A stretch of DNA of 39,810 nucleotides. Source: Planctomycetota bacterium (GTDB lineage: Bacteria; Planctomycetota; Brocadiia; SM23-32). The position numbers and the translations under genes were made by a program. The stretch lies in assembly GCA_030628375.1 (NCBI GenBank), contig DAOVRD010000001.1:1-39810 (forward strand), given 5' to 3'. Shown here piece by piece: positions 15,626 to 34,265 of the stretch (its first letter is position 1; every line of letters starts with the position of its first letter). A model generated the notes under the pieces. That model saw only the letters and a list, made by a program, of their open reading frames with translations, did no database searches and was not told the origin of the DNA.

Positions 15626-16456
15626 TCACATTCGGGACCCGCCGCCCACATAGACAAGCTGTCCGGTGATCCAACGGGCCTGCTCAGATGCAACAAGCAC
15701 AACCGCGTCTGCTATGTCTTGGGGCTGGCCGATCCGACCCATCGGACAAGCTGCAGACTCACGCTCAACGGCTTCAGCCCCGTAGCCCCCGGTCTGGACG
15801 GGCCCCGGAGAAACGACATTCACTGTGACGCCGTAGGGGCCAAGCTCCTTGGCGGCAACCCGGCTAATGCTCTCCATCGCATACTTGCTGGCCCCATACC
15901 AGACGCTTCCGCCAAAGGCGTCTGCCGCATCAGTGCTCACGTTGATGATACGTCCCCATCTGGCAGCGCGTTCGATGTGCCGCCGCCCATACTCCTGTAT
16001 CATCAGGGCTACCGCGCGCGTGTTCACCGCGAAATGCCTGTCCATGCTCGCGGCGTTTGCCTCCAAGACCCGGCTGGGGTACTCACAGTGAGCGGCATTG
16101 TTCACCAGCACGTCCACTGCCCCAAAGGCGGATTCGGCGCGGTCGAAAAGCAGAGGGATGTTGGCTGGATCCGCAAGGTCGGTTTCCCATGCCTCAGCGC
16201 TGCCGCCTGCATCGCGGATCGATTTCACAACATGATCGGCAGACTTCGCCCGCATAGCAGCATAAAGAGCTTCGGCCGATTCGCTAAGCCCCCGAGCGAC
16301 ATCCTCGCCCCAACCGGTGTCCTGTGGTCGCACGCGCAGATAGGTGAGGAACAGCTTCGCGCCTTCAGCCGCCAGACCCTTTGCGACGGCCGCACCGATC
16401 CCGTGGTTCGCCCCGGTCACCAAAGCGACTCTGCCCTGGAGTCCTGTATCCATCAT
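15626..16456 (-). CDS. Short-chain dehydrogenase/reductase (SDR)
   Basis: VALVTGANHGIGAA (TGxxxGxG) and YGASKYA (YxxxK). The start overlaps the upstream stop (ATGA at 16453-16456). Confidence 0.9.
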   Translation of the reverse strand: MMDTGLQGRVALVTGANHGIGAAVAKGLAAEGAKLFLTYLRVRPQDTGWGEDVARGLSESAEALYAAMRAKSADHVVKSIRDAGGSAEAWETDLADPANIPLLFDRAESAFGAVDVLVNNAAHCEYPSRVLEANAASMDRHFAVNTRAVALMIQEYGRRHIERAARWGRIINVSTDAADAFGGSVWYGASKYAMESISRVAAKELGPYGVTVNVVSPGPVQTGGYGAEAVERESAACPMGRIGQPQDIADAVVLVASEQARWITGQLVYVGGGSRM

Positions 16457-16956
16457 CTGTTCTCCCGAATGGCGATCAGACGCTCAAGGTCCTCCTTGTC
16501 CCCCGCGCGGTTGGATGCCTTCTTGCTGATGATCAAATCCTCAAGACCGATGAAGTTCACATCCAGATCGGCCATCGTCGCTCGCACACGGCGCTGGTAA
16601 CAGTCTTCGAACGTCCCATCCGAAACCCAAAGGAGGACCTCCATTCCAAAGGGCGGGTCACCTATCGTGGCCACCTCGTCCTTCTGTCTCACCACAAATG
16701 GCGGCTGCCCTATCTGGAGAAGATCCTGCACCAGGACCATCTGTGGCGTAAGAGTCCGGTCGTCAACGCCAAGAGCACGAAGGGCCTGCACGAGCTTCTC
16801 TGCCGTTTCGGGCTCACGGGGGATCCAGACGTCCAGGTCCTTGGGATCGCGGCGGTAACCATAATACACCACGGCATGGCCGCCGGTAACCAGATAACGA
16901 ACGCCTGCAGCGTTCAGGAGAGCCAGAAACCGCCGCAAGTCCCTTGAGACCTCCAT
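16453..16956 (-). CDS. Nucleotidyltransferase-fold protein (DUF6036/AbiEii-like minimal NTase; assignment tentative)
   Basis: 167 aa with GGGAGGG RBS. N-terminal LLNAAGVRYLVTGGHAVVYYGYRRDPKDLDVWI and C-terminal FIGLEDLIISKKASNRAGDKEDLERL match the pattern of small NTase-fold proteins. Confidence 0.6.
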   Translation of the reverse strand: MEVSRDLRRFLALLNAAGVRYLVTGGHAVVYYGYRRDPKDLDVWIPREPETAEKLVQALRALGVDDRTLTPQMVLVQDLLQIGQPPFVVRQKDEVATIGDPPFGMEVLLWVSDGTFEDCYQRRVRATMADLDVNFIGLEDLIISKKASNRAGDKEDLERLIAIRENR

Positions 16957-16977
16957 GCAGACCCTCCCGCCGTTCGG

Positions 16978-17643
16978 CTATTGATTATCTGGTTTCTGCA
17001 TCACCAGGCATGTATAGCCCTTCGAGTCCTTGTGGACCGGCATGACGTCTTCGCACACGATGAAACGACGGAACTCATAACGTAGTTCCTGCGTGTCGAA
17101 CTGGTGGTGAGGGACGCCCTTCTCGTGACCTTCGAGAGGAACGTACGTATGCGGTTCCACTTCCACTGCCTTCGGCGCACCCGGCCGCGGGGGACGTCGC
17201 TCCGTCGCAACCGTCAAGAACAGAAGCCCCCCCTCCCGAAGCACCCGGTGGATCTCGGCGACCGTCTGCCGGATCTGGCGGATGCGATGATGATTGACGA
17301 CCTGGATGCACAACATCGCGTCGAAAGAGGCGTCCGGCCAGCGAATGTGCGTCATGTCACCCGCCTTCAGGTCAGCAGACAGGTTCTCCCCCGCCAGCCA
17401 CTCGTCCGCGAGGCGAATTGCCGTAGGCGCGATGTCCTGTCCGTGCATCAGGTACCCGCGCCGGGCAAAGAAGACCAGATGTCTCCCATCGCCACAGCCA
17501 AGGTCAAGTATGGCGCGCACATTCCGATCGCGGAAGACGCGATCGAGGGCCTGGCAGTCTTCATGTTGGCTGGCCTTGCGATATCCGCCCGAAGGCCGCT
17601 TTCGATAGGCCGCCTCCCATCCGGTTGCGTCTTCTCCCGTCAT
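16978..17643 (-). CDS. Class I SAM-dependent methyltransferase
   Basis: ATG at 17643 (AAGAAGGAA upstream); the track start at 17664 is a TTG. Motif I is ILDLGCGDGRH. Confidence 0.85.
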   Translation of the reverse strand: MTGEDATGWEAAYRKRPSGGYRKASQHEDCQALDRVFRDRNVRAILDLGCGDGRHLVFFARRGYLMHGQDIAPTAIRLADEWLAGENLSADLKAGDMTHIRWPDASFDAMLCIQVVNHHRIRQIRQTVAEIHRVLREGGLLFLTVATERRPPRPGAPKAVEVEPHTYVPLEGHEKGVPHHQFDTQELRYEFRRFIVCEDVMPVHKDSKGYTCLVMQKPDNQ

Positions 17644-17785
17644 GATTTCCTTCTTAGAACCCAACCTTGCGCCTCAGGCGCCGCGTGGCCGTCGGCCGGA
17701 GCGTCGGGCTTGAGTGGTCAATGCCAGTCCAGCGTACGATCACCAGCCCCGTTCACTGCGTCCGGCACGTACGCCTCTCGGCTGG

Positions 17786-18574
17786 TTATGCATCACGCAG
17801 CACGCATGCCAGACTGCCGACGTGCTGGCGGTCGTGGTAGATCACGCGGAAGCCCGCTCGCCCCAACTCCTCCACCAACGCCTGCGGTTTCAGATGCCTT
17901 CTATGGGGCAGATACCATCTGCCGCTGATTCGTACCGCATCTGGGAAGTCCCCGGGCGCCTCATCCAGTGGGCTATACACGATGCCCGTCTTGAGGTCTA
18001 TGAGCCTATTTCCATAGCGACTGTACGCAGTTCCTGTCGAGGCATCCAGGACAGGCCCGTTCTCCCGGACCAGGGCTTCATGCTCCGCATCCATCACGGC
18101 GCTGCTGACGAGGTAGTACCCCTGGCTTTTCAAGCGTGCGCGGACCGCAGAGAAGACCCTCCCACGATCCTCGTCAAAGACAATGCACTGAAGGCAGTAG
18201 CTATCGACGATCATGTCATACTTCTTGCCCTCGGGGGGCAAGTCGCACACGTCCATGACCTCGTAGTGGATGTCCAGGCCTCGTTGGGATGCAAACTGTC
18301 TTGCCATCTCGATGGCGGCAGGGACCAAGTCGACGGCGTCGACACGGAAGCCTCTTTCCGCCAGGAAGCAGGCATCTGGACCGGTGCCACACCCGTAGTC
18401 CAGCACGGTAGGCTCCGCCGTCTGAAAACTCAGTTTGGGCAGGACTGCTTCTAAGAATGGCCGTGAGCAGAAGTTCTCGAATCCAACTCCACCATGGATC
18501 TCAGCCCAAGCTGTCTTGCCCTCGGCCCGGATCCTATCGTAGCCGCGGACGTGTTCTGGATAGTAGTACTTCAC
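17786..18574 (-). CDS. Class I SAM-dependent methyltransferase
   Basis: In-frame GTG at 18574 (AGGAGAG 8 nt upstream) within track ORF 17786-18673. Motif I is VLDYGCGTGPDACFLAERGFRVDAVD. Confidence 0.8.
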   Translation of the reverse strand: MKYYYPEHVRGYDRIRAEGKTAWAEIHGGVGFENFCSRPFLEAVLPKLSFQTAEPTVLDYGCGTGPDACFLAERGFRVDAVDLVPAAIEMARQFASQRGLDIHYEVMDVCDLPPEGKKYDMIVDSYCLQCIVFDEDRGRVFSAVRARLKSQGYYLVSSAVMDAEHEALVRENGPVLDASTGTAYSRYGNRLIDLKTGIVYSPLDEAPGDFPDAVRISGRWYLPHRRHLKPQALVEELGRAGFRVIYHDRQHVGSLACVLRDA

Positions 18575-18608
18575 GGTATCGCTCTCCTGGTTCGCCTGGG
18601 CAGGGAAC

Positions 18609-19397
18609 TCACCGGCACGGCCGGTCCGTGTCCGGCGGACGCTGCTGTTGCACGTCCGCCTTCCGACCCACAATCAGCAAGTACGCGGGCAGCTTGTCCA
18701 GGTTCGCCTTCATCCAGAACTCGTCCTCTACGTGCTCCCCGTGCTCATCGACTTCCACCAGGGCGCAACCGGCGTCCAGCACAGCCTGGATGTGATCGGC
18801 GACCGTCCAGTGGAACTCAAATTGAGGCTGGCCTTCGTCAGACCGATACTCGTAAGGCCCGCGGTTGAAATACCGGTGGCGTGGCGCGGGACCGTCGCTG
18901 TCGAGCCACATCCGCCTGATCGGGTGGTAGTCGTTGACGACAAGAATGCCTCCCGGCCTCAGCACACGCACGGCCTCCGCGTAGTACTTCCGAACATCGG
19001 AGACCCAGACCGACATGTGGCCACCCGTGTAGACGAGGTCGAAGGTGCTATCCCCCACACTGCTCAGGTCGGTAACGTCGGCCCTCAAGAAGGTCACCTC
19101 CAGCCCGAGAGCGCGTGCCCTCTCCTCGGCGATCTCCAGTCGCCTCTCGGATATGTCCACCGAGGTGACTTTGCCGCCCATTCCGGCCAGGGCGAAGACG
19201 ACCTCGTTGTCCCCGCTGCCCAGCACGCAGACATCCTTTCCCTGGACGTCCGTCAGGAACGGCATTTCGGCGGGGGAGAGGACCAGTGTCGGGTCCCGAT
19301 GACACCTCATCCAGAGGCCCCTCTTATCCTCCCTCTCCTTCCACCACTGGGCCGAAGCATTCCAGGCGGCCCGATTTGCCTCATGCATCTCGTTCAT
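18609..19397 (-). CDS. Class I SAM-dependent methyltransferase
   Basis: ATG at 19397 (MNEMHEANRAAW) within track ORF 18609-19640. Motif I is VCVLGSGDNEVVFALAGMGGKVTSVD, with LRPGGILVV downstream. Confidence 0.8.
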   Translation of the reverse strand: MNEMHEANRAAWNASAQWWKEREDKRGLWMRCHRDPTLVLSPAEMPFLTDVQGKDVCVLGSGDNEVVFALAGMGGKVTSVDISERRLEIAEERARALGLEVTFLRADVTDLSSVGDSTFDLVYTGGHMSVWVSDVRKYYAEAVRVLRPGGILVVNDYHPIRRMWLDSDGPAPRHRYFNRGPYEYRSDEGQPQFEFHWTVADHIQAVLDAGCALVEVDEHGEHVEDEFWMKANLDKLPAYLLIVGRKADVQQQRPPDTDRPCR

Positions 19398-19561
19398 TTC
19401 ACTCGTCCGGCTATTGATTGCCTCGTTTCCGCATAAGACCCGCTGAGTTCCATCATTCAACGCCTGCCGGCCGAACCGCCGAGCTTGAGTCGTCAACGCC
19501 TTCCAGCGGCGCCGCTCACGCGGGCAGTTTGCCGCTTGGCCATGCAACCGCGGCTGTAAGT

Positions 19562-19951
19562 TCAGTAGTCCCTGATGACCATGCCTACCGAAGGCTGCAT
19601 CCCGAACCTCGAGTAGAAAGGCTGCAATGCAGGATAGCATGTCAGGTCAATACAGGGAATGCCCCGCAGCTTCTCAAGAATCCGCCTCATCAATCCGGTC
19701 CCGATACCTTGATTCTGGTATTCGGGGAGCACTTCGAGAAGGTAGATGAAGGCCTGCTGAACATGGTCCGTGAGCGCCACAGCGAAACCCACGACTCGAT
19801 GCTCGTCGGGGTCCACCGCGACGATCTTGACGCCACTGTTCGCGAGAATCTTGAGATGCGTTTCAGGGTCATGGGGCCTCTTCCACCCCACAAAGAATCC
19901 CTGCAGCATGCCGGGCGTAATCGCGTCACTCGTGTCCGTGTATTCGATCAT
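19562..19951 (-). CDS. GNAT family N-acetyltransferase
   Basis: 129 aa: IYLLEVLPEYQNQGIGTGLMRRILEKL (motif A). The start overlaps the upstream stop (ATGA at 19948-19951). Confidence 0.85.
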   Translation of the reverse strand: MIEYTDTSDAITPGMLQGFFVGWKRPHDPETHLKILANSGVKIVAVDPDEHRVVGFAVALTDHVQQAFIYLLEVLPEYQNQGIGTGLMRRILEKLRGIPCIDLTCYPALQPFYSRFGMQPSVGMVIRDY

Positions 19952-20538
19952 TGCCTATCGTCCGGAACGAGAAGTTCGGCAACGAGTGCCTTTCCTTGGG
20001 CCAACTCCGCCGGGGGGAACTCGCCGCCCCGGATCATGTCAACAAGTTCCTGCGTGCTGTCTAACGCTGCGGCCAGTTGCGAGCCCGAAATGAGACCGAT
20101 GCCAAGAGCCATTCCCAGGTCGCTCAGGTCCAGCACGCTGTGCGTGCGGAGGTCTTCCTGAACGATCACGTCGCAGAAAAGGTCGGTGAAGAGCCAACAG
20201 CCAAGCGTCTCCTCGTGGCAAATGCTGCCAATGTGAACGTACCACGGCCAGTCCTCTCCGAGATTTGGGAAGCAGGCATTCTCGATGATGGCCCACTTCT
20301 TTCGTGGCAAGTAGTAGAGGAGCGACTTCGGGCCATAGCCGATCCCTGGATGGGGCCTCTCCACAATCAACTCGTCGCTGATCTGCCACCAACGCCAGTC
20401 CTCGTCCGGCGTCTCCCGGGATGCCACGACTTTCTGCTGGATGTGCGCGGAGACAACTTCGGGCGGATTGACCTTGAATCCCCGCCCTTCGCCATGCTCC
20501 TTGCCCAACCTTCGCCACACGACAAGGGTCCTTTCCAA
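19948..20538 (-). CDS. DUF402-like protein (FomD/Ntdp-type nucleoside phosphatase fold; tentative)
   Basis: 196 aa with a TTG start at 20538 and GGAGG 6 nt upstream. WYVHIGSICHEE...LFTDLFCDVIVQEDLRTHSVLDLSDL resembles the DUF402 acidic motif. Confidence 0.6.
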   Translation of the reverse strand: MERTLVVWRRLGKEHGEGRGFKVNPPEVVSAHIQQKVVASRETPDEDWRWWQISDELIVERPHPGIGYGPKSLLYYLPRKKWAIIENACFPNLGEDWPWYVHIGSICHEETLGCWLFTDLFCDVIVQEDLRTHSVLDLSDLGMALGIGLISGSQLAAALDSTQELVDMIRGGEFPPAELAQGKALVAELLVPDDRQ

Positions 20539-20609
20539 GGCTTGCCTCCGTTCCGCATGCGCTCTCCGTGCAATCGGGATTGATCATTCAACGCCAGGGG
20601 ACCGAACCG

Positions 20610-21344
20610 TCAGGCTTGAGGCGGTTGAAAGTGCGGTTGCTGGCCACTCTTGTATCCCCAGACGAGGCAACCTCGCTTGGTCACCGTAAGCGGCGCGCCC
20701 AAACGACGGGCGGCCTCCTGGCACTCACCTGCGTCCATTCCTCTGCCGAATAGATACTCCGCCACGGCCTCCACATCCGGCAGATGGATCATGGGAGCGT
20801 CCCACGCCTCCACCTCGACGTTCGCGAAGAACCTGGCGACAAGGTCCGGCGCATCCTCGGCGTCGAACGTCGAAGGTCGTGTGGGCATCACTTCGGCCAA
20901 CTCCGGATCGTTGTGCCGGCTGGGGGCCGCCGCAACGAAGAGCCCACCGGCACGCAGAACACGGCAACTCTCGCTGAGAGCCTTCTCGGGCTCCGACAGA
21001 TGGTAAAGCACGTACAGCGCGGCGACCGCTCCGAACCAGCCGGTTCGAAACGGAAGCGATGATGCGTCGCCGAGGACTCGCGACCCCGGCACGGCCGACA
21101 GCATCGTTGCGGAGTTGTCAAGCCCCACGACTTGAATCCCTTGATCTTGCAGGAGCCGGCACAATCTGCCTTCGCCACATCCAACGTCCAGGACGGGCTG
21201 CAAGCCCTCCCTCACGATTCGTTCTGCGACGGATTCATGAACATCGCCCTTGCCGTACTTGCGGGGGCATTCGCTGCCAACGCGGAAGCGCTCGGGATTC
21301 GTGTCATAATCTGCTGGAGCCGCTTGCGCTCGTTCTTCATCCAT
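20610..21344 (-). CDS. Class I SAM-dependent methyltransferase
   Basis: ATG at 21344 (MDEERAQ); the track start at 21377 is a TTG without an RBS. Motif I is VLDVGCGEGRLCRLLQDQGIQVVGLD, with LRAGGLFV downstream. Confidence 0.8.
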   Translation of the reverse strand: MDEERAQAAPADYDTNPERFRVGSECPRKYGKGDVHESVAERIVREGLQPVLDVGCGEGRLCRLLQDQGIQVVGLDNSATMLSAVPGSRVLGDASSLPFRTGWFGAVAALYVLYHLSEPEKALSESCRVLRAGGLFVAAAPSRHNDPELAEVMPTRPSTFDAEDAPDLVARFFANVEVEAWDAPMIHLPDVEAVAEYLFGRGMDAGECQEAARRLGAPLTVTKRGCLVWGYKSGQQPHFQPPQA

Positions 21345-21582
21345 TCTTGTCTGGCTCACACGAAGCGTAGTCGCCAACTAGCGCGCCAACCGCCGGTCGG
21401 TCGGACACCGAACCCGAGGAGCTTGAAACGTAGTCTGGCAGATCCTCGTACTGCCACATTCGCCGGCACTCGCTCTCGGCGTCCGTCGCCTTGCCCGCCT
21501 CGAAGCGTATTGTAACCGCGCCGTAGAGGTCTTCCAAGATAAGTCGAGTCAGGAATCTCAACAGTCTCGCGCCTTCCCGCAT
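21337..21582 (-). CDS. Small DUF2292 (YezD)-like protein
   Basis: LILEDLYGAVTIRFEAGKATDAESECRRMW resembles the DUF2292 core (YGSV-x-I-x-x-x-x-G-K-V). Start is ATG 21582, or 21621 as an alternative. It overlaps the next methyltransferase start by 8 nt. Confidence 0.5.
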   Translation of the reverse strand: MREGARLLRFLTRLILEDLYGAVTIRFEAGKATDAESECRRMWQYEDLPDYVSSSSGSVSDRPAVGALVGDYASCEPDKNG

Positions 21583-26023: not shown

Positions 26024-27268
26024 TCAGGCGGACGGCGGCTCCGGGGGACGGGGCACGTCGCTCGGGAAGACGGCCCGGAGGACGCGCAGCACATTGCCTC
26101 CGACGATCTTCCGGATGTCCTCGTCCGAATAGCCGCGCTGAACGAGGCCGACGGTGATGTAGGGCCAGTTGGTCCAGTAGCAACTCGCCATGCCCGGAAG
26201 ATCGTGCTCGGGCGGACTGCCTTCCGGGCCCGGCTGCCAGAGCCAGCGCCAGCGCTTCCGCCCATGGAGCCTGCCCATCTTCTTCAGCTCCGAGTGGTAG
26301 GTGGAGGAGGTGGCGCAGTAGTCCATCCCGATGGCCACGTGGTCGGCGCCGAACGTCTTGGCCGCGTACTCGATGTGGTCGAGCATGGCGCTCAGGTCGT
26401 CGCTCATGCCCAGGAAGCCCGGCACGGCGTAGACGCCGATGTAGCCGCCGGTGTCGCAGATGGCCCGGATGACGCCGTCCGGCTTGGAGCGCATGTGGGG
26501 GAACAGGGCGGCGCAGCTCGTATGGCTGGCCACCATCGGCTTCTGGCTGACCTGGGCCGCCTCCAGCGAGGTCTGCCAGCCGCAGTGGGCCACGTCCACC
26601 AGGACGCCGACACGGTTCATCTCCGCCACCACGGCGCGGCCGAAATCGCTCAGGCCCGCGTTGGCCGTCTCGCCGGCGCCGTCGCCGATCATGTTCCGAC
26701 GCTGGTAGGTCAGGTGCATCATCCGGACGCCCAGCTCGAAGAAGATGCGGATGTATTGAAGCTCCTCCTCGACCGACTCCCAGTTCTGCGTGAGGGGGAC
26801 GCCGTTGGTGATCATGGTGAAGCAGGGCCGGCCCTTCTGCTTCGCGGCGACGATGTCGTCGGGAGTGACGGCCCGGTCCACCACGTCGCTCATGTCCGCC
26901 GCGAACGTCATGTGGGCCAGGCGGTGCATGAGGCGCAAGGGCGACTGGCACTCCTCTCCCGCCGTCGCCAGCATGCAGGTGACGCCGGAAGCGTCCCACG
27001 ACTCGGCGTACTCGGCGCGCTCGCGGGCGTCGGTCACCATGCGCGTCATCTGCATCTGTTCGAGCATCTCGCGCACCTCGGTGGCCGGCGCGCCCTCCTC
27101 GGCGGCCGCCTTGAGCGCGTCGCCGTCCGGCGCTGCCCGGGGCGGCAGGCCGTAGGACTCCACCACCAGGGAGTCGGCGTGCAGTTCGAGCCCGTGTTCC
27201 AGGTCCTTCGTGCTGGGCTTCAGGACTGCCAGCGCAGCATCCCGTGCGTTCTGGATCTTTTCGTTCAT
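26024..27268 (-). CDS. Membrane (renal)-type dipeptidase, peptidase family M19
   Basis: ATG at 27268 (GGAGGGG upstream) in track ORF 26024-27289. LELHADSLVVES, LVDVAHCG, MVASHTS and HVAIGMDY are consistent with M19 metal-ligand motifs. Confidence 0.85.
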   Translation of the reverse strand: MNEKIQNARDAALAVLKPSTKDLEHGLELHADSLVVESYGLPPRAAPDGDALKAAAEEGAPATEVREMLEQMQMTRMVTDARERAEYAESWDASGVTCMLATAGEECQSPLRLMHRLAHMTFAADMSDVVDRAVTPDDIVAAKQKGRPCFTMITNGVPLTQNWESVEEELQYIRIFFELGVRMMHLTYQRRNMIGDGAGETANAGLSDFGRAVVAEMNRVGVLVDVAHCGWQTSLEAAQVSQKPMVASHTSCAALFPHMRSKPDGVIRAICDTGGYIGVYAVPGFLGMSDDLSAMLDHIEYAAKTFGADHVAIGMDYCATSSTYHSELKKMGRLHGRKRWRWLWQPGPEGSPPEHDLPGMASCYWTNWPYITVGLVQRGYSDEDIRKIVGGNVLRVLRAVFPSDVPRPPEPPSA

Positions 27269-27325
27269 CCGAGCCCCTCCAAAGTGCATGCTCTCGAGCC
27301 GTCCGGACGTGCCGCGGATCGTGAG

Positions 27326-27622
27326 TCAGACGCGGCAACTGTAATCGAAAAAGCCGACGCGCTCCAGGTCAGCCCGGAGCTTCCGACAGCGAGACTCGTC
27401 CAGGGCGGGCAGCGGCAGGCGCGGCACTCCGCAGTCCACGCCCATCAGCCTCATTATGGGCTTGACGGCAGCCAGCCCACCGGACCCGGCAAGGACGTTC
27501 ACCATCTCCCTGGCGCGCGACTGCCCCGCCTGCGCCGTCGCCATGTCTCCGGCCCGGTAGGCCTCCATAATGCGCACGTAGAGCGGCGCGGCCAGCAGAC
27601 CCTCCAGGTGTTCCCTCGGCAT
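27326..27622 (-). pseudogene. Dihydrodipicolinate synthase/N-acetylneuraminate lyase family, C-terminal remnant only (about 98 of about 300 aa)
   Basis: YRAGDMATAQAGQSRAREMVNVL...AAVKPIMRLMGVDCGVPRLPLPALDESRCRKLRADLERVGF matches the C-terminal helices of DapA-family lyases. An in-frame TAA lies 11 codons upstream of the ATG. There is no room for the N-terminal barrel before the divergent sulfatase. Confidence 0.55.
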
Positions 27623-27778
27623 CGCTCTCTCCGCGCAGTAGAAGGACGCCGTGCATTATATGTCCGGCCGAAGCGAACCGCCATCACAGGCGCCGGGGCG
27701 AAGCCCCAACTTGCCGCACCTCCAGGCCCGGGTTACAATCGGCCATCGTCACTCAACAACAAGGGGAGGAACGGACAG

Positions 27779-29281
27779 GTGAACGAACGACCGCACATCG
27801 TCATCTTCAATCCCGACCAATGGCGCGGCGAGGCGCTCGCGCACGTGGGGAACCCGTGCGTGGTGACGCCCAACCTGGACCGCATCACCGAGACGGACGG
27901 CGTCTCGTTCCGCCGGGCCTTCACCCAGAACCCCGTCTGCACGCCCAGCCGCTGCTCGTTCATGACGGGCTGGTATCCGCACGTGCGCGGCCATCGGACG
28001 ATGTACCACATGCTGCGGGAGGACGAACCCGTCCTGCTCAAGATTCTCAAGGACGCCGGCTACTTCGTCTGGTGGGGCGGCAAGAACGACCTGACGCCTG
28101 CCCAGAATCCCCAGGACCCCTACTGCGACGTGCGCTATCAACCCGACCGCCGGCCCAAACCGACGTGGCAGACGGACCGGGCGGACAGGTGGCGAGGACC
28201 GAAAGACGGCGACGCGTTCTTCTCCTTCTACGTGGGCAAACTCGACACGGGGGCAGGGGACATCTACTACGACAGCGATTGGGCCGTAGTCGAGGGAGCG
28301 GTTGATTTCCTCAAGAACGCTCCGAAGGACCGGCCGCTGTGCCTCTTCCTGGCCCTGACGTATCCCCATCCTCCCTACGCCGTCGAGGAGCCCTGGTACT
28401 CCCTCATTGACCGGGGCAAGGTGCCTCCCCGCATCCCGACGCCGGAGGGCTGGCAAGGCAAGCCCAGCCTGCTCAAAGGCATATGCGAGAACCAGAGGCT
28501 GCAAGGCTGGACCGAGGAACGCTGGACGGAACTGCGCGCCACCTACTACGGCATGTGCGCGCGGCTGGACCATCAGTTCGGCATGGTGATGGAAGCGCTC
28601 AGAGAACTCGGCATCTACGACGACACCGCCGTCTTCTTCTTCAGCGATCACGGCGACTTCACCGGGGATTACGGCCTGGTGGAAAAGACGCAGAACACGT
28701 TCGAAGACTGCCTCACCCGCGTGCCGTTCGTCATCAAGCCGCCGTCATGGGTCGGCCCAAAGGCTCGCGTCAGCGACGCCCTGATCGAACTGGTGGATTT
28801 CCCGGCCACCGTCTACGAGCTGACGGGCATTGAGCCCGGCTACACGCATTTCGGCCGTTCACTGGTGCCGCTGCTGAAGGGCGGAACGGACGAGCACCGG
28901 GACGCCGTCTTCTGTGAGGGCGGGCGGCTGCACGGGGAGAGGCACTGCATGGAGCTGGAGAGCGGCAGCGATCCGGGCGGCCTCTACTGGCCCCGCATCT
29001 CCCTGCAGCGGCAGGAGGGCCCGGAACACACCAAGGCCCTGATGTGCCGGACCGGGGACTTCAAGTACGTGCGACGCCTCTACGAGAGCGACGAGCTTTA
29101 CGACTTGCGGGCGGACCCGATGGAATTGACCAACCTTGCGCACGATCCGGGTCATTCCGCGGTCCTTGCGCGGATGAAAGATCGCATGTTGACGTTCTTC
29201 CTGGAGACCGGCGACGTCGTTCCGCACGACGCGGACAAGAGATGGTCCGGTCAGAGACTCCCGCGCGAGCAGCGGAAGTAA
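27779..29281 (+). CDS. Sulfatase (formylglycine-dependent)
   Basis: In-frame GTG at 27779 (GGGGAGGA upstream). Only the last 500 codons of track ORF 26204-29281 are protein-like: VNERPHIVIFNPDQWRGE...NPVCTPSRCSFMTGWYPHVRGHR (C-x-P-S-R)...FFFSDHGDFTGDYG. Confidence 0.9.
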   Translation: MNERPHIVIFNPDQWRGEALAHVGNPCVVTPNLDRITETDGVSFRRAFTQNPVCTPSRCSFMTGWYPHVRGHRTMYHMLREDEPVLLKILKDAGYFVWWGGKNDLTPAQNPQDPYCDVRYQPDRRPKPTWQTDRADRWRGPKDGDAFFSFYVGKLDTGAGDIYYDSDWAVVEGAVDFLKNAPKDRPLCLFLALTYPHPPYAVEEPWYSLIDRGKVPPRIPTPEGWQGKPSLLKGICENQRLQGWTEERWTELRATYYGMCARLDHQFGMVMEALRELGIYDDTAVFFFSDHGDFTGDYGLVEKTQNTFEDCLTRVPFVIKPPSWVGPKARVSDALIELVDFPATVYELTGIEPGYTHFGRSLVPLLKGGTDEHRDAVFCEGGRLHGERHCMELESGSDPGGLYWPRISLQRQEGPEHTKALMCRTGDFKYVRRLYESDELYDLRADPMELTNLAHDPGHSAVLARMKDRMLTFFLETGDVVPHDADKRWSGQRLPREQRK

Positions 29282-30127: not shown

Positions 30128-30156
30128 TTGATTCGCATGGGCCGGCAGGCTATATA
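30128..30156 (+). promoter_or_regulatory. Candidate sigma70-type promoter for the nitroreductase gene
   Basis: TTGATT (30128-30133), 17 nt spacer, TATATA (30151-30156). Hexamer match only. Confidence 0.45.
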
Positions 30157-30257
30157 TGCGGTGCCGGTGGGGCACCGGGGCAAACCGGGCGGACAGAGGC
30201 GGCGTGTCCGTGCCTGTTCCCCGTCCGGATGAATCTCAAACGTGGAAGAGGATCGTC

Positions 30258-30911
30258 ATGGGTACGAAGTTGGTTTTGGCTCTTCGTCTGGTGTGTGTCG
30301 CCCTGCTGATCGGCGTGGCCTTCGCATCCGCACAGGAGGCCAAGCAACTCGAACTGCCGGAGCCGCAGACCGACGGCGGCAGGCCCCTCATGCAGGTGCT
30401 GAAGGACAGGAAATCCTTGCGTTCGTACAGCAGCCGGGCCCTGCCCCCGCAGGAGCTTTCCAACCTGCTCTGGGCGGCGTGTGGCGTCAACCGGCCCGAT
30501 TCCGGCAAGCGCACGGCGCCCACCGCGAGGAACATGCAACAGATAGACGTCTATGTCGCGACCGCAGAGGGGCTCTACCTGTTCGACGCAAAGGCCCACG
30601 CGCTGAACCTCGTTCTGGAGAAAGACATCCGGGCCATGACGGGGACCCAGAGCTTCGTTGCAGAGGCCCCCGTGAACCTGGTCTTCGTGTCGGACCACGC
30701 CCGGATGGGCGGCTCCTCGCAGGCCAGTAAGGACTTCTATTCAGCCACTGACACGGGCTTCATCAGCCAGAACGTCTATCTCTACTGCGCCTCGGAGGGT
30801 CTGGCGACCGTCGTGCGCGGGCTGGTAGATCGCCCCAAGCTCGCAAAAGAAATGGGCCTGCGAGCGAACCAGAAGATCATCCTCGCGCAGTCGGTCGGCT
30901 ATCCCAGGTAG
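30258..30911 (+). CDS. Nitroreductase family protein with N-terminal signal peptide
   Basis: ATG at 30258 in track ORF 30156-30911. Signal-like MGTKLVLALRLVCVALLIGVAFASAQ, then LKDRKSLRSYS...LLWAACGVNR...VGYP, typical of the nitroreductase fold. Confidence 0.85.
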   Translation: MGTKLVLALRLVCVALLIGVAFASAQEAKQLELPEPQTDGGRPLMQVLKDRKSLRSYSSRALPPQELSNLLWAACGVNRPDSGKRTAPTARNMQQIDVYVATAEGLYLFDAKAHALNLVLEKDIRAMTGTQSFVAEAPVNLVFVSDHARMGGSSQASKDFYSATDTGFISQNVYLYCASEGLATVVRGLVDRPKLAKEMGLRANQKIILAQSVGYPR

Positions 30912-31075
30912 GGGGTTCCGCAGAGGCCGCGATCACATGACCCCGCGTCTGCCTGCTAAGCCTATTCGTACGTGACCCCGTTCCGACTGCGATTATACTT
31001 GAGCGATCAAGCACCGTCCAGAGAGGAATCCTGGGAAGCTTGCAAGATTCTTCAGAACACGGCCAACACCAATGT

Positions 31076-31285
31076 CTATCGGCCGAGATGGACCGTACGG
31101 GGATCGGCCTTTCCCCCCTCGGTGGCCTGGAGGGTGCGAGAGAATGGAAGCGACAGGTCATAGCCGGATCTCTTGACACCTTGCTTTTCAAGCTCCTTGA
31201 TCAAAGCCAGGCTCTGTTCGAGCAAGCGGGTGTCGATGAGAGGGTTCGCTTTCACCAGTTCTTTCTTGTTTGGTTTCTTGCCCAT
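31076..31285 (-). CDS. Small hypothetical protein (69 aa) immediately downstream of the protease
   Basis: ATG at 31285 lies 5 nt after the protease TGA. MGKKPNKKELVKANPLIDTRLLEQSLALIKELEKQGVKRSGYDLSLPFSR is K/E-rich and protein-like. The last roughly 20 codons run into high-G+C flanking DNA. Confidence 0.5.
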   Translation of the reverse strand: MGKKPNKKELVKANPLIDTRLLEQSLALIKELEKQGVKRSGYDLSLPFSRTLQATEGGKADPRTVHLGR

Positions 31286-31290
31286 TCTTA

Positions 31291-32193
31291 TCACGCCCTC
31301 TTGTGAAAGCTCAGGGGGATAAACCGTAAGCGGGTGTGAATCACGCCCTCTGCAGCGCGTTTGTCCCTGTAATCCTTGAGAAGAAGGTAATATCTTGTGA
31401 TTCTCTCCTTCAACTCGTCGTTGGCCCCGAAGTCTTCAACGCGAAGCCCGACTTTGCGCCTCAGGATTTCCATGGAAATACCGCGTGAGTGGGAGTGCCA
31501 CTTCTTGGTGTCATTCAGCAATTCGGCGATTTGCGCAGCGCGCCGCACTTTCATCTGCCGGGTTACCTTAACCCCGCGAGTCTCGGTGCTTTTCCATGTT
31601 CTAAACTTATAGCGAACAAGCCAGTCTTTGAGCAAGGTGATAGTCAAATTCCGCGACTGTTCATATTGGTGCATCTCGGCGGGATCAAAACGTTCTATCA
31701 AATACGCCGCTTCTACAGCCGTCAGCTTGCCTTCTCTTGATTTGTCAAGCAGTTCCTCGTATTTCGCTAAGTACCCCAGCGCTGGCACCATTTTGCCATC
31801 GGGCTTTTCAATCTGTGGGTCAATTGGCCCCAGCACCGAAAAGTAGTCCATGTGGAGAGCATCGCCGGACATCACAAGAACCGTCCCGGCAGACTTGGCA
31901 AAATTCGGGATTATGAACTCTACTCGCCTATAATGGTGTCGAAGGAGAGCTACAAGGCGCTCGACCACGTCGATGTACCCCCCCGGCGTCTCCAACACCA
32001 AGCAGAGCTTCTTGCCCCGGCGTTTCCTAGTATGGAGCTCCTCTATAGCACTCCGAACCATATCATCCGCGCCGTACGCCAGTAATCCCACAAACGACAA
32101 CACATCGCCGCCGACAGTGGATTCGAGCGCCGTTATGTGGCCCTTGAGTTGCGCTTCAACGACGATGTTGGCGCTGGGTGCGGGCTTTGCCAC
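31291..32193 (-). CDS. SDH-family (PF01972-like) ClpP/crotonase-fold serine protease
   Basis: In-frame GTG at 32193 (AGGAGA 6 nt upstream) within track ORF 31291-32514. The upstream part of that ORF overlaps a better small gene in another frame. KLCLVLETPGGYIDVVERLVALL...IPNFAKSAGTVLVMSGDALHM is the S49/SDH-type nucleophile region. Confidence 0.75.
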   Translation of the reverse strand: MAKPAPSANIVVEAQLKGHITALESTVGGDVLSFVGLLAYGADDMVRSAIEELHTRKRRGKKLCLVLETPGGYIDVVERLVALLRHHYRRVEFIIPNFAKSAGTVLVMSGDALHMDYFSVLGPIDPQIEKPDGKMVPALGYLAKYEELLDKSREGKLTAVEAAYLIERFDPAEMHQYEQSRNLTITLLKDWLVRYKFRTWKSTETRGVKVTRQMKVRRAAQIAELLNDTKKWHSHSRGISMEILRRKVGLRVEDFGANDELKERITRYYLLLKDYRDKRAAEGVIHTRLRFIPLSFHKRA

Positions 32194-32263
32194 AACCTTT
32201 CTCCTGAAACCGCAGCGCGAGGAGCCAATTGGCCTATAATAAGGTGATGGGGCCAGAGCAGGT

Positions 32264-32488
32264 TCATCGCTGTTTGGACCAGCGCGCTTGGGCAGCTTTT
32301 CGCGCGATCTCTTTGCGTCTTTCAGCGGAAAGCCTTTGCGCCCGCGCTGGCCCGCCCTTGAGTCCACCAAGCCGCCCGAGTGCGACAGCCGCAGGATTCC
32401 TCTCGTCGCCGGTTGCTTCTGCGACGATCCGTTTGGCGGTAAGGTTCTCGGCTTCCGCCCTCTTATGCGTGGTTTCCTTCTTCGCCAT
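32264..32488 (-). CDS. Small basic protein with KGG/histone-H1-like C-terminal motif (putative nucleic-acid binding)
   Basis: ATG at 32488 in track ORF 32264-32518: MAKKETTHKRAEAENLTAKRIVAEATGDERNPAAVALGRLGGLKGGPARAQRLSAERRKEIARKAAQARWSKQR. Confidence 0.65.
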   Translation of the reverse strand: MAKKETTHKRAEAENLTAKRIVAEATGDERNPAAVALGRLGGLKGGPARAQRLSAERRKEIARKAAQARWSKQR

Positions 32489-32494
32489 GCCATC

Positions 32495-32522
32495 ATCATA
32501 CCATGCTTGACCACACAAGCAA
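32495..32522 (-). promoter_or_regulatory. Candidate sigma70-type promoter giving a leaderless or near-leaderless transcript
   Basis: Minus strand: TTGCTT (32522-32517), 16 nt spacer, TATGAT (32500-32495), then only 6 nt before the ATG at 32488. Confidence 0.45.
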
Positions 32523-32548
32523 GCAGAAAGTCTAGTAAAACTGACCCA

Positions 32549-33439
32549 CTACCCGCAGGGCCCCTGATTCGAGTTGACCAGGGGCACGATCCGGCTGCGG
32601 CCAGCGGGGCGGACCCCTTCCCTTAGCTGACGCCGGCTGCACGCGGGGAGGCGGGCGAACTGTCGCCGCAGGCGGGCGCGCGCCCACGCTTCGATAGGCG
32701 CGGGACCGGCAGGGATGAGGGGCTGGGCCTCGCCGAAGTCCTGGTTCCGCGCGCCGAAGGCTCGATGGCTCCGCACGTTATCGCCGCCGCCGCTGATGTG
32801 GTGCAGGCCCCCGGCCCAGCGATAGATGTAGCTGATGTCCCGGTCGGCCGGGTTCCAGGCGTAAAGCTCCCCGGCCTTGCGGAACTTCGCGAGCAAGGCC
32901 TTGGCCTGCCCGCTGACCTTCGGCGGGTAGCCGCCCAGCTCGAGGGCGCGCCGCCGGCCGAACACCATCTGCCCCTCGAAGACGTTGTGGCAGGGACCAC
33001 GCAACTCAAATCCTTCACGCGGGCCGACGCCCCACCACGCGGCGCCCGGCTTGACGCATCCCGTCCCGCATTGCGCGGGAGGACCCCCGCGCTCCAGAAG
33101 CGCCGAAACACACTGTCGGAGATGCCAGGGGAGGTAAAGGTCGTCGTCATCCCAGTGGGCGACCAACGGTGTCTCGGCCAACTCCAGAAGGGCCTGGCGT
33201 TTGTGGCCCAGAGTCGGGTAACGGGTCGGCGCATTTCGAACCTGCACGAACGGCAGATGAGGGCCCGTCAGAAGCGGAACCGGCGCGTCGTTCAGGATCA
33301 ACAGGCGCTTCTCGCCCGAGTAGTCCTGGAGCAGGAAGCAGGCGATGGCGTCGCGCAGTCGCTCGAAGCGGCCGTAAGTGGGGCAGAGGCACGTCACAGC
33401 AGGCCAGAGGCTGGAGACTGGAGGCTGCAGGTCAGACAT
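32549..33439 (-). CDS. Glycosyltransferase (GT2-like) with a repeat-encoded N-terminus
   Basis: ATG at 33439 (GGAGGA 8 nt upstream). MSDLQPPVSSLWP is encoded by repeat DNA, then AVTCLCPTYGRFERL...LILNDAP...HWDDDDLYLP (DxD). The start overlaps the upstream stop by 8 nt. Confidence 0.75.
   Translation of the reverse strand: MSDLQPPVSSLWPAVTCLCPTYGRFERLRDAIACFLLQDYSGEKRLLILNDAPVPLLTGPHLPFVQVRNAPTRYPTLGHKRQALLELAETPLVAHWDDDDLYLPWHLRQCVSALLERGGPPAQCGTGCVKPGAAWWGVGPREGFELRGPCHNVFEGQMVFGRRRALELGGYPPKVSGQAKALLAKFRKAGELYAWNPADRDISYIYRWAGGLHHISGGGDNVRSHRAFGARNQDFGEAQPLIPAGPAPIEAWARARLRRQFARLPACSRRQLREGVRPAGRSRIVPLVNSNQGPCG
33401..33434. repeat. GC-rich GGCTGGAG/CTGCAG-family repeat (copy a)
   Basis: Contains GGCTGGAGACTGGAGGCTG at 33409-33427, an identical 19-mer to 38119-38137. 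Confidence 0.85.
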
Positions 33440-34265
33440 CGGAACGGTCCTCCTCATGATCTACGCGGTCTACGGGCTTGCCATCACGGTAGACGATCTC
33501 GAAGCGCTGCGGACGGTGCCTCAAGGCGGTGGGTCGCTCCGGGGCACCCTGGACCCATCGCCGCAGCTTGTCCTGTCGGCTGCGCAGGAGCATGTTGACA
33601 GCGCGCCGGTGGATATCGTCCTCGTCCATTTCTGCCAGGCCCGCGAAGTCCTCCAGCCGCCCCGGCGCGCCGGCGCGCAGCCACTTGCGCACATACTGGC
33701 GCTCAACGAGCCGCCGGTCCGGCTTGACGCCCTTGACGTGGAACAGCAGGGGCCCGCCGCTCCTGGCCGGCTTCAGCTTGCCATCGAGCTGGTACTTCGC
33801 GGTGCTCCCCCCGCGCCAGGCGACATCCTTCAAGAGGCGGCGGTTCCAGTAGACGTGGCAGCGGTCGTAGTGGCGCAGGCGCTGGGTGGTGTGGTCGAAG
33901 TCGCCCCACATCTCGCACAGCTCCAGGCGCACGAGCGGCCGGGGGCCTTTGGCGATCTCGCGCAGCCGGTGGGCGGCGTACTCGCAGAGCACGTCATCCG
34001 CGTCGAGCCAGAACAGGTGGTCGGAGTCGGTCGCCTCAAGCAGGCGGTTGCGGGCCCGCACCCAGCCGAGTTGCTGCGCGCCTTCGTAACGGATCAGGCG
34101 CACGTGCCGATGCCGGGCGGCCGCATCGAGGGCCACGTCGGCCGTGTGGTCGCTCGAACAGTCGTCCAGCACGACGATCTCGTCGAAGTGGTCGGCGATG
34201 CTGCGCAGGCAGAAGCCGAGCGTGTAGTCGTCGTTGTGCGCGGGGATCAGGGCGGTGAGCTTCAT
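33432..34265 (-). CDS. Glycosyltransferase family 2
   Basis: ATG at 34265 within track ORF 33432-34424. MKLTALIPAHNDD...VVLDDCSSDHT...FWLDADD. ATGA overlap with the upstream gene at 34262-34265. Confidence 0.85.
   Translation of the reverse strand: MKLTALIPAHNDDYTLGFCLRSIADHFDEIVVLDDCSSDHTADVALDAAARHRHVRLIRYEGAQQLGWVRARNRLLEATDSDHLFWLDADDVLCEYAAHRLREIAKGPRPLVRLELCEMWGDFDHTTQRLRHYDRCHVYWNRRLLKDVAWRGGSTAKYQLDGKLKPARSGGPLLFHVKGVKPDRRLVERQYVRKWLRAGAPGRLEDFAGLAEMDEDDIHRRAVNMLLRSRQDKLRRWVQGAPERPTALRHRPQRFEIVYRDGKPVDRVDHEEDRSDV

Follow-up and report, generated by a model that had tools for sequence, protein, structure and literature searches.

A probable IS1-family insertion sequence remnant in a Planctomycetota genome carries a ClpP-fold serine protease and a small partner protein as cargo

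We have analysed a short region of low G+C content in the genome of a Planctomycetota bacterium (GTDB lineage Bacteria; Planctomycetota; Brocadiia; SM23-32), the window examined being the 39,810 nt at positions 1 to 39,810 of contig DAOVRD010000001.1 in assembly GCA_030628375.1. The region, termed here the islet, contains three intact open reading frames (ORFs) on the minus strand which encode, in order of transcription, a basic protein of 74 aa (g1), a ClpP-fold serine protease of the SDH type (300 aa) and a small protein of 69 aa (g3). Between positions 30915 and 32553 the G+C content is 0.548, the minimum in the window among stretches of equal size, against a window mean of 0.649 (standard deviation 0.032, equal-sized windows), and G+C at third codon positions is similarly reduced, being 0.61-0.69 in g1, the protease and g3 versus 0.76-0.89 in the flanking genes. 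Taken together, the observations presented below make it highly probable that the islet is the truncated remnant of a transporter insertion sequence (IS) of the IS1 family, in which g1 is a backbone gene and the protease and g3 form a cargo pair (Table 1).

An earlier note, made from the DNA letters, had described a minus-strand group of three genes in an islet of low G+C content that appeared to be horizontally acquired, and these points stand, the window copy being a horizontally acquired mobile-element remnant. The sequence motifs that it listed are all present, NPAAVALGRLGGLKGG and RKEIARKAAQARW in g1 and ETPGGY and FAKSAGT in the protease, and the ATG of g3 does lie 5 nt after the protease TGA. 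In contrast, the 3' end of g3 does not run into host-like DNA as had been stated, since foreign DNA extends a further ~160 nt past g3, to ~30916. Placement of the islet between a nitroreductase gene and a glycosyltransferase cluster is correct on the nitroreductase side, but on the other side the adjoining ORF (32549-33457) has no glycosyltransferase match, such a match being found in the gene after it. Composition of the islet is unameliorated, which suggests a fairly recent arrival.

Table 1. Features of the islet and its boundaries (window coordinates; tnp, transposase gene)
Feature	Position	Strand	Description
Islet, truncated IS1-family transporter IS remnant	~30916-32553	-	left repeat, g1, cargo pair and tnp promoter with ~17 decayed codons
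Left terminal inverted repeat (IRL)	32536..32553	-	GGTAGTGGGTCAGTTTTA; 17/18 match to sibling repeat GGTAGTGGGTCAGTTTGA
g1 promoter	32495..32522	-	TTGCTT (32522-32517), 16-nt spacer, TATGAT (32500-32495); read from sequence, putative function
g1	32264..32488	-	74-aa basic protein, ATG start; IS backbone gene; keeps all 25 invariant family positions
Protease (cargo gene 1)	31291..32193	-	300 aa, GTG start; ClpP-fold SDH-type serine protease; PF01972 46.9 bits
g3 (cargo gene 2)	31076..31285	-	69 aa, ATG start; protease partner; homologue directly downstream in 74/80 loci
Transposase promoter/operator remnant	30992..31020	-	TGGACG, 17-nt spacer, TATAAT; promoter scan 10/12
Decayed transposase 5' end (~17 codons)	30916..30969	-	reads TNRLSRQTRGHVIAASAE versus consensus MNRLSxxxRAQIIxCLVEG
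Deletion junction with host DNA	30907..30917		adjoins nitroreductase stop codon 30909-30911

At the left end of the islet, the IRL is the sole match to the sibling repeat within the window. The TAG contained in it (32551-32549) terminates the upstream host ORF (32549-33457), which is also on the minus strand, encodes 302 aa and has no Pfam match. Because this stop codon lies within the IRL, the insertion has replaced or clipped the natural 3' end of the host ORF, and the lost 3' part, if any, was removed with the deletion at the other side. The spacer region of the g1 promoter carries the palindrome CTTGTGTGGTCAAG (32519-32506) and the layout of this promoter matches that found before both g1 and tnp in sibling elements. 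As the g1 ATG occurs only 6 nt past the -10 box, the g1 mRNA is probably leaderless. Between g1 and the protease there is no obvious terminator, and the protease GTG is located 6 nt past AGGAGA. Transcription of all three genes probably starts at the promoter of g1, a leaderless one close to the inner edge of the left repeat.

The right end of the islet retains only the beginning of a transposase gene. The spacer of the tnp promoter remnant holds the palindrome CTTGATCGCTCAAG (31011-30998), and by blastn the remnant matches the g3-tnp intergenic region of five sibling loci (L004, L019, L056, L059 and L066). In the stub that follows, the ATG has become ACG, 15 nt have been inserted before it and everything downstream has been deleted. 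A nucleotide profile built from 34 intact tnp promoter and 5' regions gave a single match in the window, at 31021-30925 (nhmmer, E=6.5e-7), and several transposases produced weak tblastn matches in the frame of the stub. Similarity to the IS ends at ~30916, 5 nt from the stop codon of the nitroreductase gene, which is complete, the full Pfam profile being matched to residue 249 of 251. No right inverted repeat was found in the window at up to 4 mismatches, and the flank beside the left repeat, GCCCTGCG, has no second copy at the other boundary which could represent a target-site duplication. Since the remainder of the transposase is deleted, the window copy is no longer mobile by itself, and with only the tnp promoter and ~17 decayed codons kept it represents the remnant of an IS1-family member rather than a functional one.

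The wider identity of the islet was obtained by comparing 80 genomic loci of protease homologues from many phyla, including Acidobacteriota, Planctomycetota, Chloroflexota, Actinomycetota, Alpha- and Betaproteobacteria, Nitrospirota and Patescibacteria, in which neighbouring genes were assigned by iterated profile search. Apart from g1 and g3, the sole recurrent gene near the protease in the 80 loci is an IS1-type DDE transposase, located directly after g3 in about a quarter of them; the sibling transposases match PF03400 with 28-39 bits (cut-off 24.1) and carry the RefSeq name 'IS1 family transposase'. An intact element consists of the left repeat, g1, variable cargo, a single-ORF DDE transposase and the right repeat, with an 8-bp target duplication outside, and complete elements span 2.1-4.8 kb. 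The 18-nt repeat GGTAGTGGGTCAGTTTGA is positioned just upstream of g1 and its reverse complement just after the transposase. This repeat is present in 25 of the 47 loci with g1 and in none of the 33 without it, while a transposase, at least as a fragment, is present in 23 of the 47 and in 1 of the 33, there on the opposite strand. Perfect 8-bp target duplications surround at least 20 complete elements, siblings with these duplications carry both terminal repeats, and the protease is the cargo in 10 duplication-flanked elements (L008, L020, L027, L034, L050, L051, L056, L059, L077 and L120).

Promoter organization is shared across the lineage. In 34 elements (L013-L156), g1 and the transposase are each preceded by TTGACA, 17 nt and (C/T)ATAAT, with the ATG 6-8 nt beyond the -10 box for both genes, an arrangement which implies that the g1 and transposase mRNAs would be leaderless in this IS lineage. 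A palindrome, ATGCTTGA-N4-TCAAGCAT, lies within the promoter spacer or at the g1 start and is common to g1 and tnp; 47 of its 74 near-matches in ~1 Mb occur at g1 or tnp promoter positions. The sequence ATGCTTGAnnnnTCAAGCAT may be a binding site for g1 or for the N-terminus of the transposase. Decay of the transposase is frequent, only ~12 of the 47 IS-borne copies having an intact one. The nearest relative of the window element, at locus L171, shares 70% protease identity and has an intact pair. The transposase of this relative (2045-2518) has a large internal deletion and the right repeat is kept, the element being non-autonomous. Thus, the window copy is typical in that the cargo outlives the transposase, which fits a cargo that is under selection or hard to lose.

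Assignment of g1 to the IS rather than to the protease rests on two sets of loci. In 47 of the 80 protease loci, the gene just before the protease, in the same orientation, is a g1 homologue. In a separate sample comprising 80 g1 homologues drawn independently from metagenomes and three looked up by identity, the sampled homologues are mostly located just inside a left repeat, and a transposase fragment follows g1 on 29 of the 80 contigs and at two looked-up loci, giving 31 elements with g1-to-transposase gaps of -12 to 1,957 nt. The protease is present in only 5 of these 80 g1 loci, the other 75 holding other cargo or none. Because g1 occurs behind the left repeat in elements with wholly different cargo, it is a backbone gene which belongs to the IS and not to the protease. 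The proposal in the earlier note that the three genes constitute one operon or system is therefore not sustained, g1 being an IS backbone gene with unrelated cargo and the protease-g3 pair occurring without g1 in 33 of the 80 loci.

At least 7,943 relatives of g1 exist, each ~75 aa long; the family shows 25 invariant positions and the core NPAAVALGRLGGLKGGxARAxxLSxxxRxEIAxKAAxARW. Our guess is that g1 is a DNA-binding regulator of the IS. No Pfam family scored above threshold. The earlier note had likened g1 to KGG proteins, but the KGG family (PF10685) gave no Pfam match even at E<=1. g1 resembles these stress-induced proteins in its Gly/Lys-rich basic sequence with 'LKGG', whereas the family to which it belongs is a separate one, single-copy, strongly conserved and associated with the IS. 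A similarity to the basic region of bHLH/HIF1A (17 bits versus a cut-off of 27, PDB E ~2) was taken as compositional. On the M. loti plasmid CP050295 (L168, 1575-1784) a g1 homologue is annotated as 'histone H1' and precedes, in this order, two cargo genes and an IS1 family transposase, and in the public annotation of the window contig (L169) g1 is not called. Owing to this label and this omission, we regard the g1 family as largely unannotated or misnamed.

The cargo carried by sister elements was scanned with Pfam and PADLOC in the DNA between g1 and tnp of the 31 elements (L081, L085 and L093-L163). Pfam matches comprised HigB/Gp49 with an HTH_3 antitoxin, XRE-M78 (ImmA/IrrE-type), Fic/DOC, NYN, an HD-domain phosphohydrolase (HD and HD_assoc), P63C, HNH and a ParA-like ATPase. 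Matches to PADLOC models comprised RmrA (twice, 1e-58), capP, dGTPase (1.5e-119), SoFic (3e-91), PD-Lambda-2_B (5e-40), PDC-S04/S24/S45 and HEC-09, the RmrA-type cargo being the XRE-M78 genes, which are RosmerTA-like. Enrichment in defence genes is indicated by example only. Some sister cargo ORFs had no match of any kind and may represent further unknown systems.

The protease itself was compared with known families at the level of sequence and predicted structure. The profile check proposed in the earlier note placed it above the PF01972 gathering threshold, with 46.9 bits against a Pfam cut-off of 31.3, the match being partial and covering residues 61-130 and profile positions 92-161, 70 of 286. 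It scores 59 bits, below the cut-off of 250, against NF047768, the 'SDH family Clp fold serine proteinase' equivalog, and constitutes a subfamily that is related to, but distinct from, this equivalog. The best PHROG is 11747 (5.7e-50), a family of unknown function, and at least 4,454 relatives were detected. In an AlphaFold2 model (predicted local distance difference test score, pLDDT, 89.4; predicted template modelling score, pTM, 0.87), the N-terminal alpha/beta domain has ClpP and the archaeal 1510-N (NfeD) protease as its best Foldseek matches (E ~1e-5), with template modelling (TM) scores of 0.45-0.65 on the target and 0.3-0.41 on the query at a sequence identity of 10-20%. The helical C-terminal domain of ~150 residues has no structural match by Foldseek and bears an invariant WHSH.RG motif. 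Ser101, in FAKSAGT, is invariant in 35 homologues and aligns with the serine motif of ClpP and 1510-N, in both of which the aligned serine is the nucleophile; the window protease keeps all invariant columns of these homologues. Ser101 is accordingly the predicted nucleophile and ETPGG a predicted oxyanion-type motif, and the invariant residues K196, H235 (in WHSH.RG), D125, D254 and D274 are candidates which could complete a triad or dyad. Since no hydrophobic leader or membrane-spanning stretch was seen when the sequence was read by eye, no predictor having been run, the protease is probably cytoplasmic.

The second cargo protein, g3, is modelled by AlphaFold2 with helices at residues 7-13 and 19-34 followed by ~35 residues of coil. 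This tail contains Y-x-L-x-x-P-F-S-R (Y-x-L-x-x-P-F-x-R in the family) and D-P-R-T-V-H-L-G-R (D-P-R-T-V-H-L-x-R), the latter at the very end of many members. Tail length ranges from 5 to 30 residues within the family, many members of which lack the C-terminal motif; the window g3 keeps every invariant residue of the family. A word-indexed protein search returned g3 alone and an exhaustive search returned 65 small relatives, while searches with Pfam, PADLOC, NCBIfam and PHROG models gave no match. A resemblance to designer pentatricopeptide proteins in the PDB was judged spurious, being a 20-residue amphipathic-helix match summed over 9 repeats, each with E ~5-14. The combination, in the model, of a docking element and a conserved extended tail would fit a binder in, or a substrate of, an enzyme groove. 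We also note a protein of 427 aa, P0288, with approximately five tandem g3-like units (...ANPQIDRRVLAQQLE...SPYYPLAAQFR...), which may be a repeat protein related to the g3 fold or may resemble it by chance.

The protease and g3 travel together. In 74 of the 80 loci the next gene after the protease, a few nt away and in the same orientation, is a g3 homologue; among the six loci without g3, most have a small ORF at the equivalent position and one reaches the contig end. The protease ORF is intact in 75 of the 80. This neighbourhood analysis, which the earlier note had called for, thus upheld one of the two small partners, g3, and not the other, since g1 tracks the IS. Protease and g3 therefore constitute a conserved mobile pair, with or without the IS, in many phyla; the pair is patchily distributed across these, with ~50-58% identity between distant lineages. 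As a gene pair which is adjacent, tightly coupled, co-oriented and co-travelling, it has the layout of a type II toxin-antitoxin (TA) system.

In the 33 loci where the pair is found without the IS, no conserved partners were detected. The 130 nearest neighbour ORFs of these pairs (L003-L080) include matches to defence models for PifA, DrmD, MADS components, E1-E2, QatA and AriA, for which no enrichment is claimed. DUF6810 occurs four times among these ORFs and ThiF/JAB/DUF6527 (E1-E2-type) genes occur twice. An Acidiphilium plasmid bears another IS1-type element, which has as cargo a more distantly related protease and a partner of 68 aa. Phage and prophage homologues of the protease are located in accessory or immunity regions.

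A protease homologue in E. coli, 39% identical and named 'SDH family Clp fold serine proteinase', is present in 20 of 5,426 complete genomes and is followed at once by an ORF of 56 aa. The E. coli pair is represented by WP_021518647.1 and WP_167851737.1, and UTAK-3 and 2018-166 are examples of lambdoid lysogens that carry it. In all four lambdoid prophages examined, these two genes lie directly downstream of, and co-oriented with, a cI-like LexA-family repressor; the four copies involve two different repressor proteins and two prophage backbones, one copy being within an IncI2 plasmid. In phage lambda the repressor-adjacent position is occupied by rexA-rexB, which is transcribed with cI in lysogens, and is the classic exclusion or defence slot. 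The 56-aa ORF is a positional equivalent of g3 and not a proven homologue. One E. coli prophage type has a convergent hicAB toxin-antitoxin pair after the protease pair (L175, 4691-5280; L178, 3691-4280), and in this type a 53-aa 'transmembrane anchored protein' is encoded between repressor and protease.

For the function of the pair we tentatively favour toxin-antitoxin or abortive-infection logic, in which the protease would be an effector or toxin restrained by g3. The small protein would dock on the protease and hold it inactive as a pseudo-substrate or labile inhibitor. Loss or titration of g3, possibly triggered by phage infection, translation shut-off or loss of the element, would free the protease to cut host or phage proteins so that growth stops, and the outcome would be stabilization of the carrier element, abortion of the infection, or both. 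The addiction or abortive-infection-like module suggested in the earlier note is still our best guess, now for the protease and g3 without g1. The wider proposal, that the pair is a new protease-based abortive-infection or addiction system distributed across phyla and that the IS1 lineage is a miniature vehicle specialized in transporting small defence and TA systems, the cargo of which tends to outlive the transposase, is one we put forward as plausible while rating it somewhat short of probable.

Several observations weigh against these interpretations. The right boundary of the remnant depends on a decayed match of 97 nt, and the junction has an 11-nt stretch, GGTAGGGGGTT, which agrees with the right repeat at 9 of 11 positions and is possibly a short vestige of it, an uncertain assignment given that 9/11 matches occur 13 times in the window versus 9.1 expected by chance. 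With respect to function, none of the three islet proteins has a match in PADLOC-DB 2.0.0 at E<=1, nor do the E. coli, Acidiphilium and Methylosinus homologues at E<=0.1. In the literature searched, no experiment or model ties the protease family to toxicity or phage defence, and nothing relevant was found for PF01972/SDH proteases or ClpP-like proteases in toxin-antitoxin or abortive infection systems. The non-IS copies mostly neighbour ordinary metabolic genes. Furthermore, the small E. coli ORF resembles g3 only marginally (4-5 bits), and for this reason the prophage evidence bears on the protease more than on the pair.

The lack of defence-model matches and the housekeeping or metabolic neighbours of the non-IS copies would favour an ordinary cellular function of the pair, the protease being a regulatory or quality-control enzyme with g3 as its adaptor or substrate and carriage by the IS a matter of chance unrelated to phage conflict or addiction. 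Protein turnover is, moreover, the usual role of ClpP-fold proteases. We consider this explanation unlikely, if the most serious of the alternatives, as it does not account for the patchy occurrence of a pair with ~50-58% identity between distant lineages, for the predominance of defence and toxin-antitoxin genes in the other cargo of the carrier IS lineage, for the repressor-adjacent slot in E. coli prophages or for the rarity of the homologue among E. coli genomes. Polarity of the pair could also be reversed, g3 or a peptide from its tail being the toxic or signalling species and the protease its antidote or processing enzyme. Conservation of the N-terminal part of g3 and of the C-terminal DPRTVHLGR, a predicted unstructured tail and a Y-x-L-x-x-P-F-S-R motif which could be a cleavage site are compatible with such an arrangement, but it is rendered doubtful by the variable tail length, by the absence of the C-terminal motif from many members and by the lack in g3 of a hydrophobic or membrane segment and of a signal peptide.

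A single dedicated tripartite system, in which g1 would specifically partner or regulate the protease, possibly as a repressor that the protease cleaves as ImmA does ImmR, is suggested by the position of g1 before the protease on the same strand in more than half of the loci, by the lack of an obvious terminator between the two and by a repressor-then-protease order reminiscent of ImmR/ImmA and of cI and the protease in E. coli prophages. It is nevertheless very improbable in view of the distribution of g1, which tracks the IS and not the protease, is accompanied by other cargo or none in 75 of 80 sampled loci and is absent from 33 of 80 protease-g3 pairs. Hardly credible is origin as a prophage morphogenesis fragment, comprising a ClpP-like prohead protease and scaffold-like small proteins, an alternative which the earlier note had itself raised. 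Weak matches to NF045542 (1.5e-5) and phrog_1684 (7e-4) point in this direction, but the NF045542 score of 25 bits falls far short of the 120 required, the best PHROG has no assigned function, portal, capsid and terminase genes are absent both from the surrounding part of the window and from the 80 loci, and the phage and prophage homologues sit in accessory or immunity regions. These rival mechanisms leave the structural conclusion, an IS1-family remnant with a protease-g3 cargo pair, unchanged.

Insertion sequences with passenger genes are known as transporter IS (tIS) (PMC7986276, PMC9330008), and the sibling elements correspond to single-ORF IS1-family members of this kind in having a PF03400 transposase, 8-bp duplications and passengers between the ends. 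We take GGnnnTG ends and duplications of 8-9 bp to be hallmarks of the IS1 family, and the sibling terminal repeats, which start GGTAGTG, fit these ends. The window copy differs in lacking a transposase and a recognizable right end. The lineage as a whole differs in having the conserved 75-aa basic g1, with no detectable InsA similarity, in place of InsA, and in its apparently leaderless g1 and tnp genes whose promoters have a common palindrome.

The protease likewise has only partial counterparts. It shares with SDH-type/S49-like peptidases (PF01972; NF047768) an N-terminal ClpP/crotonase-like domain and the ETxGG and SAGT motifs, but differs from them in the limited extent of its profile match and in its extra C-terminal domain, and an obligate small partner gene is not among the described features of that family. 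ClpP and NfeD/1510-N are its nearest structural neighbours, with the serine motif aligned; in contrast to these, the window protease has no ClpX or ClpA partner, no membrane or stomatin context and an additional C-terminal domain.

Precedents exist for toxin-antitoxin and defence genes as transposon cargo (PMC8649781, PMC9330008). Like the TA pairs of Tn3-family transposons, the defence genes of Tn7-like transposons, rexAB and RosmerTA, the protease-g3 pair is compact, tightly coupled, patchy and mobile-borne, but it has no homology to a known toxin, antitoxin or defence protein. We know of no characterized precedent for a ClpP-fold protease as an effector. The statement in the earlier note that no characterized system has this composition is in keeping with the PADLOC result.

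Other features of the window lie outside the islet. The nitroreductase gene (30156-30911) has a longest ORF beginning 34 codons upstream of the signal-peptide-like MGTKLVLALRLVCVALLIGVAFASA, public calls giving a shorter form of 217 aa. A sulfatase-domain protein of 1,025 aa is encoded at 26204-29281. On the minus strand, 15626-21377 is a block of moderately lower G+C content (~0.60 versus 0.65-0.68) with four class-I S-adenosylmethionine (SAM) methyltransferase genes, a short-chain dehydrogenase and a nucleotidyltransferase-like gene, and resembles a small cluster for tailoring or modification.

In itself, a decayed insertion sequence is ordinary. Less so are an IS1 lineage that has a conserved g1 and many defence and TA genes in its cargo bay, these being found in many phyla, and a protease/small-protein pair, neither of which is represented in the models or described in any paper in the literature searched. 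An anonymous three-gene islet is thereby resolved into two separable and testable things, the IS1 lineage and the protease pair. Tn7-type transposons are known to ferry defence systems, and a plain IS doing so with a load of one or two genes would be a carrier both very small and highly mobile, the cargo bay of which would offer a cheap route to new systems. The pair, having thousands of relatives and recurring both in this cargo bay and in the repressor-adjacent slot of prophages, is a motivated candidate for a ClpP-fold defence or addiction mechanism, a lead which the E. coli version of the pair makes testable.

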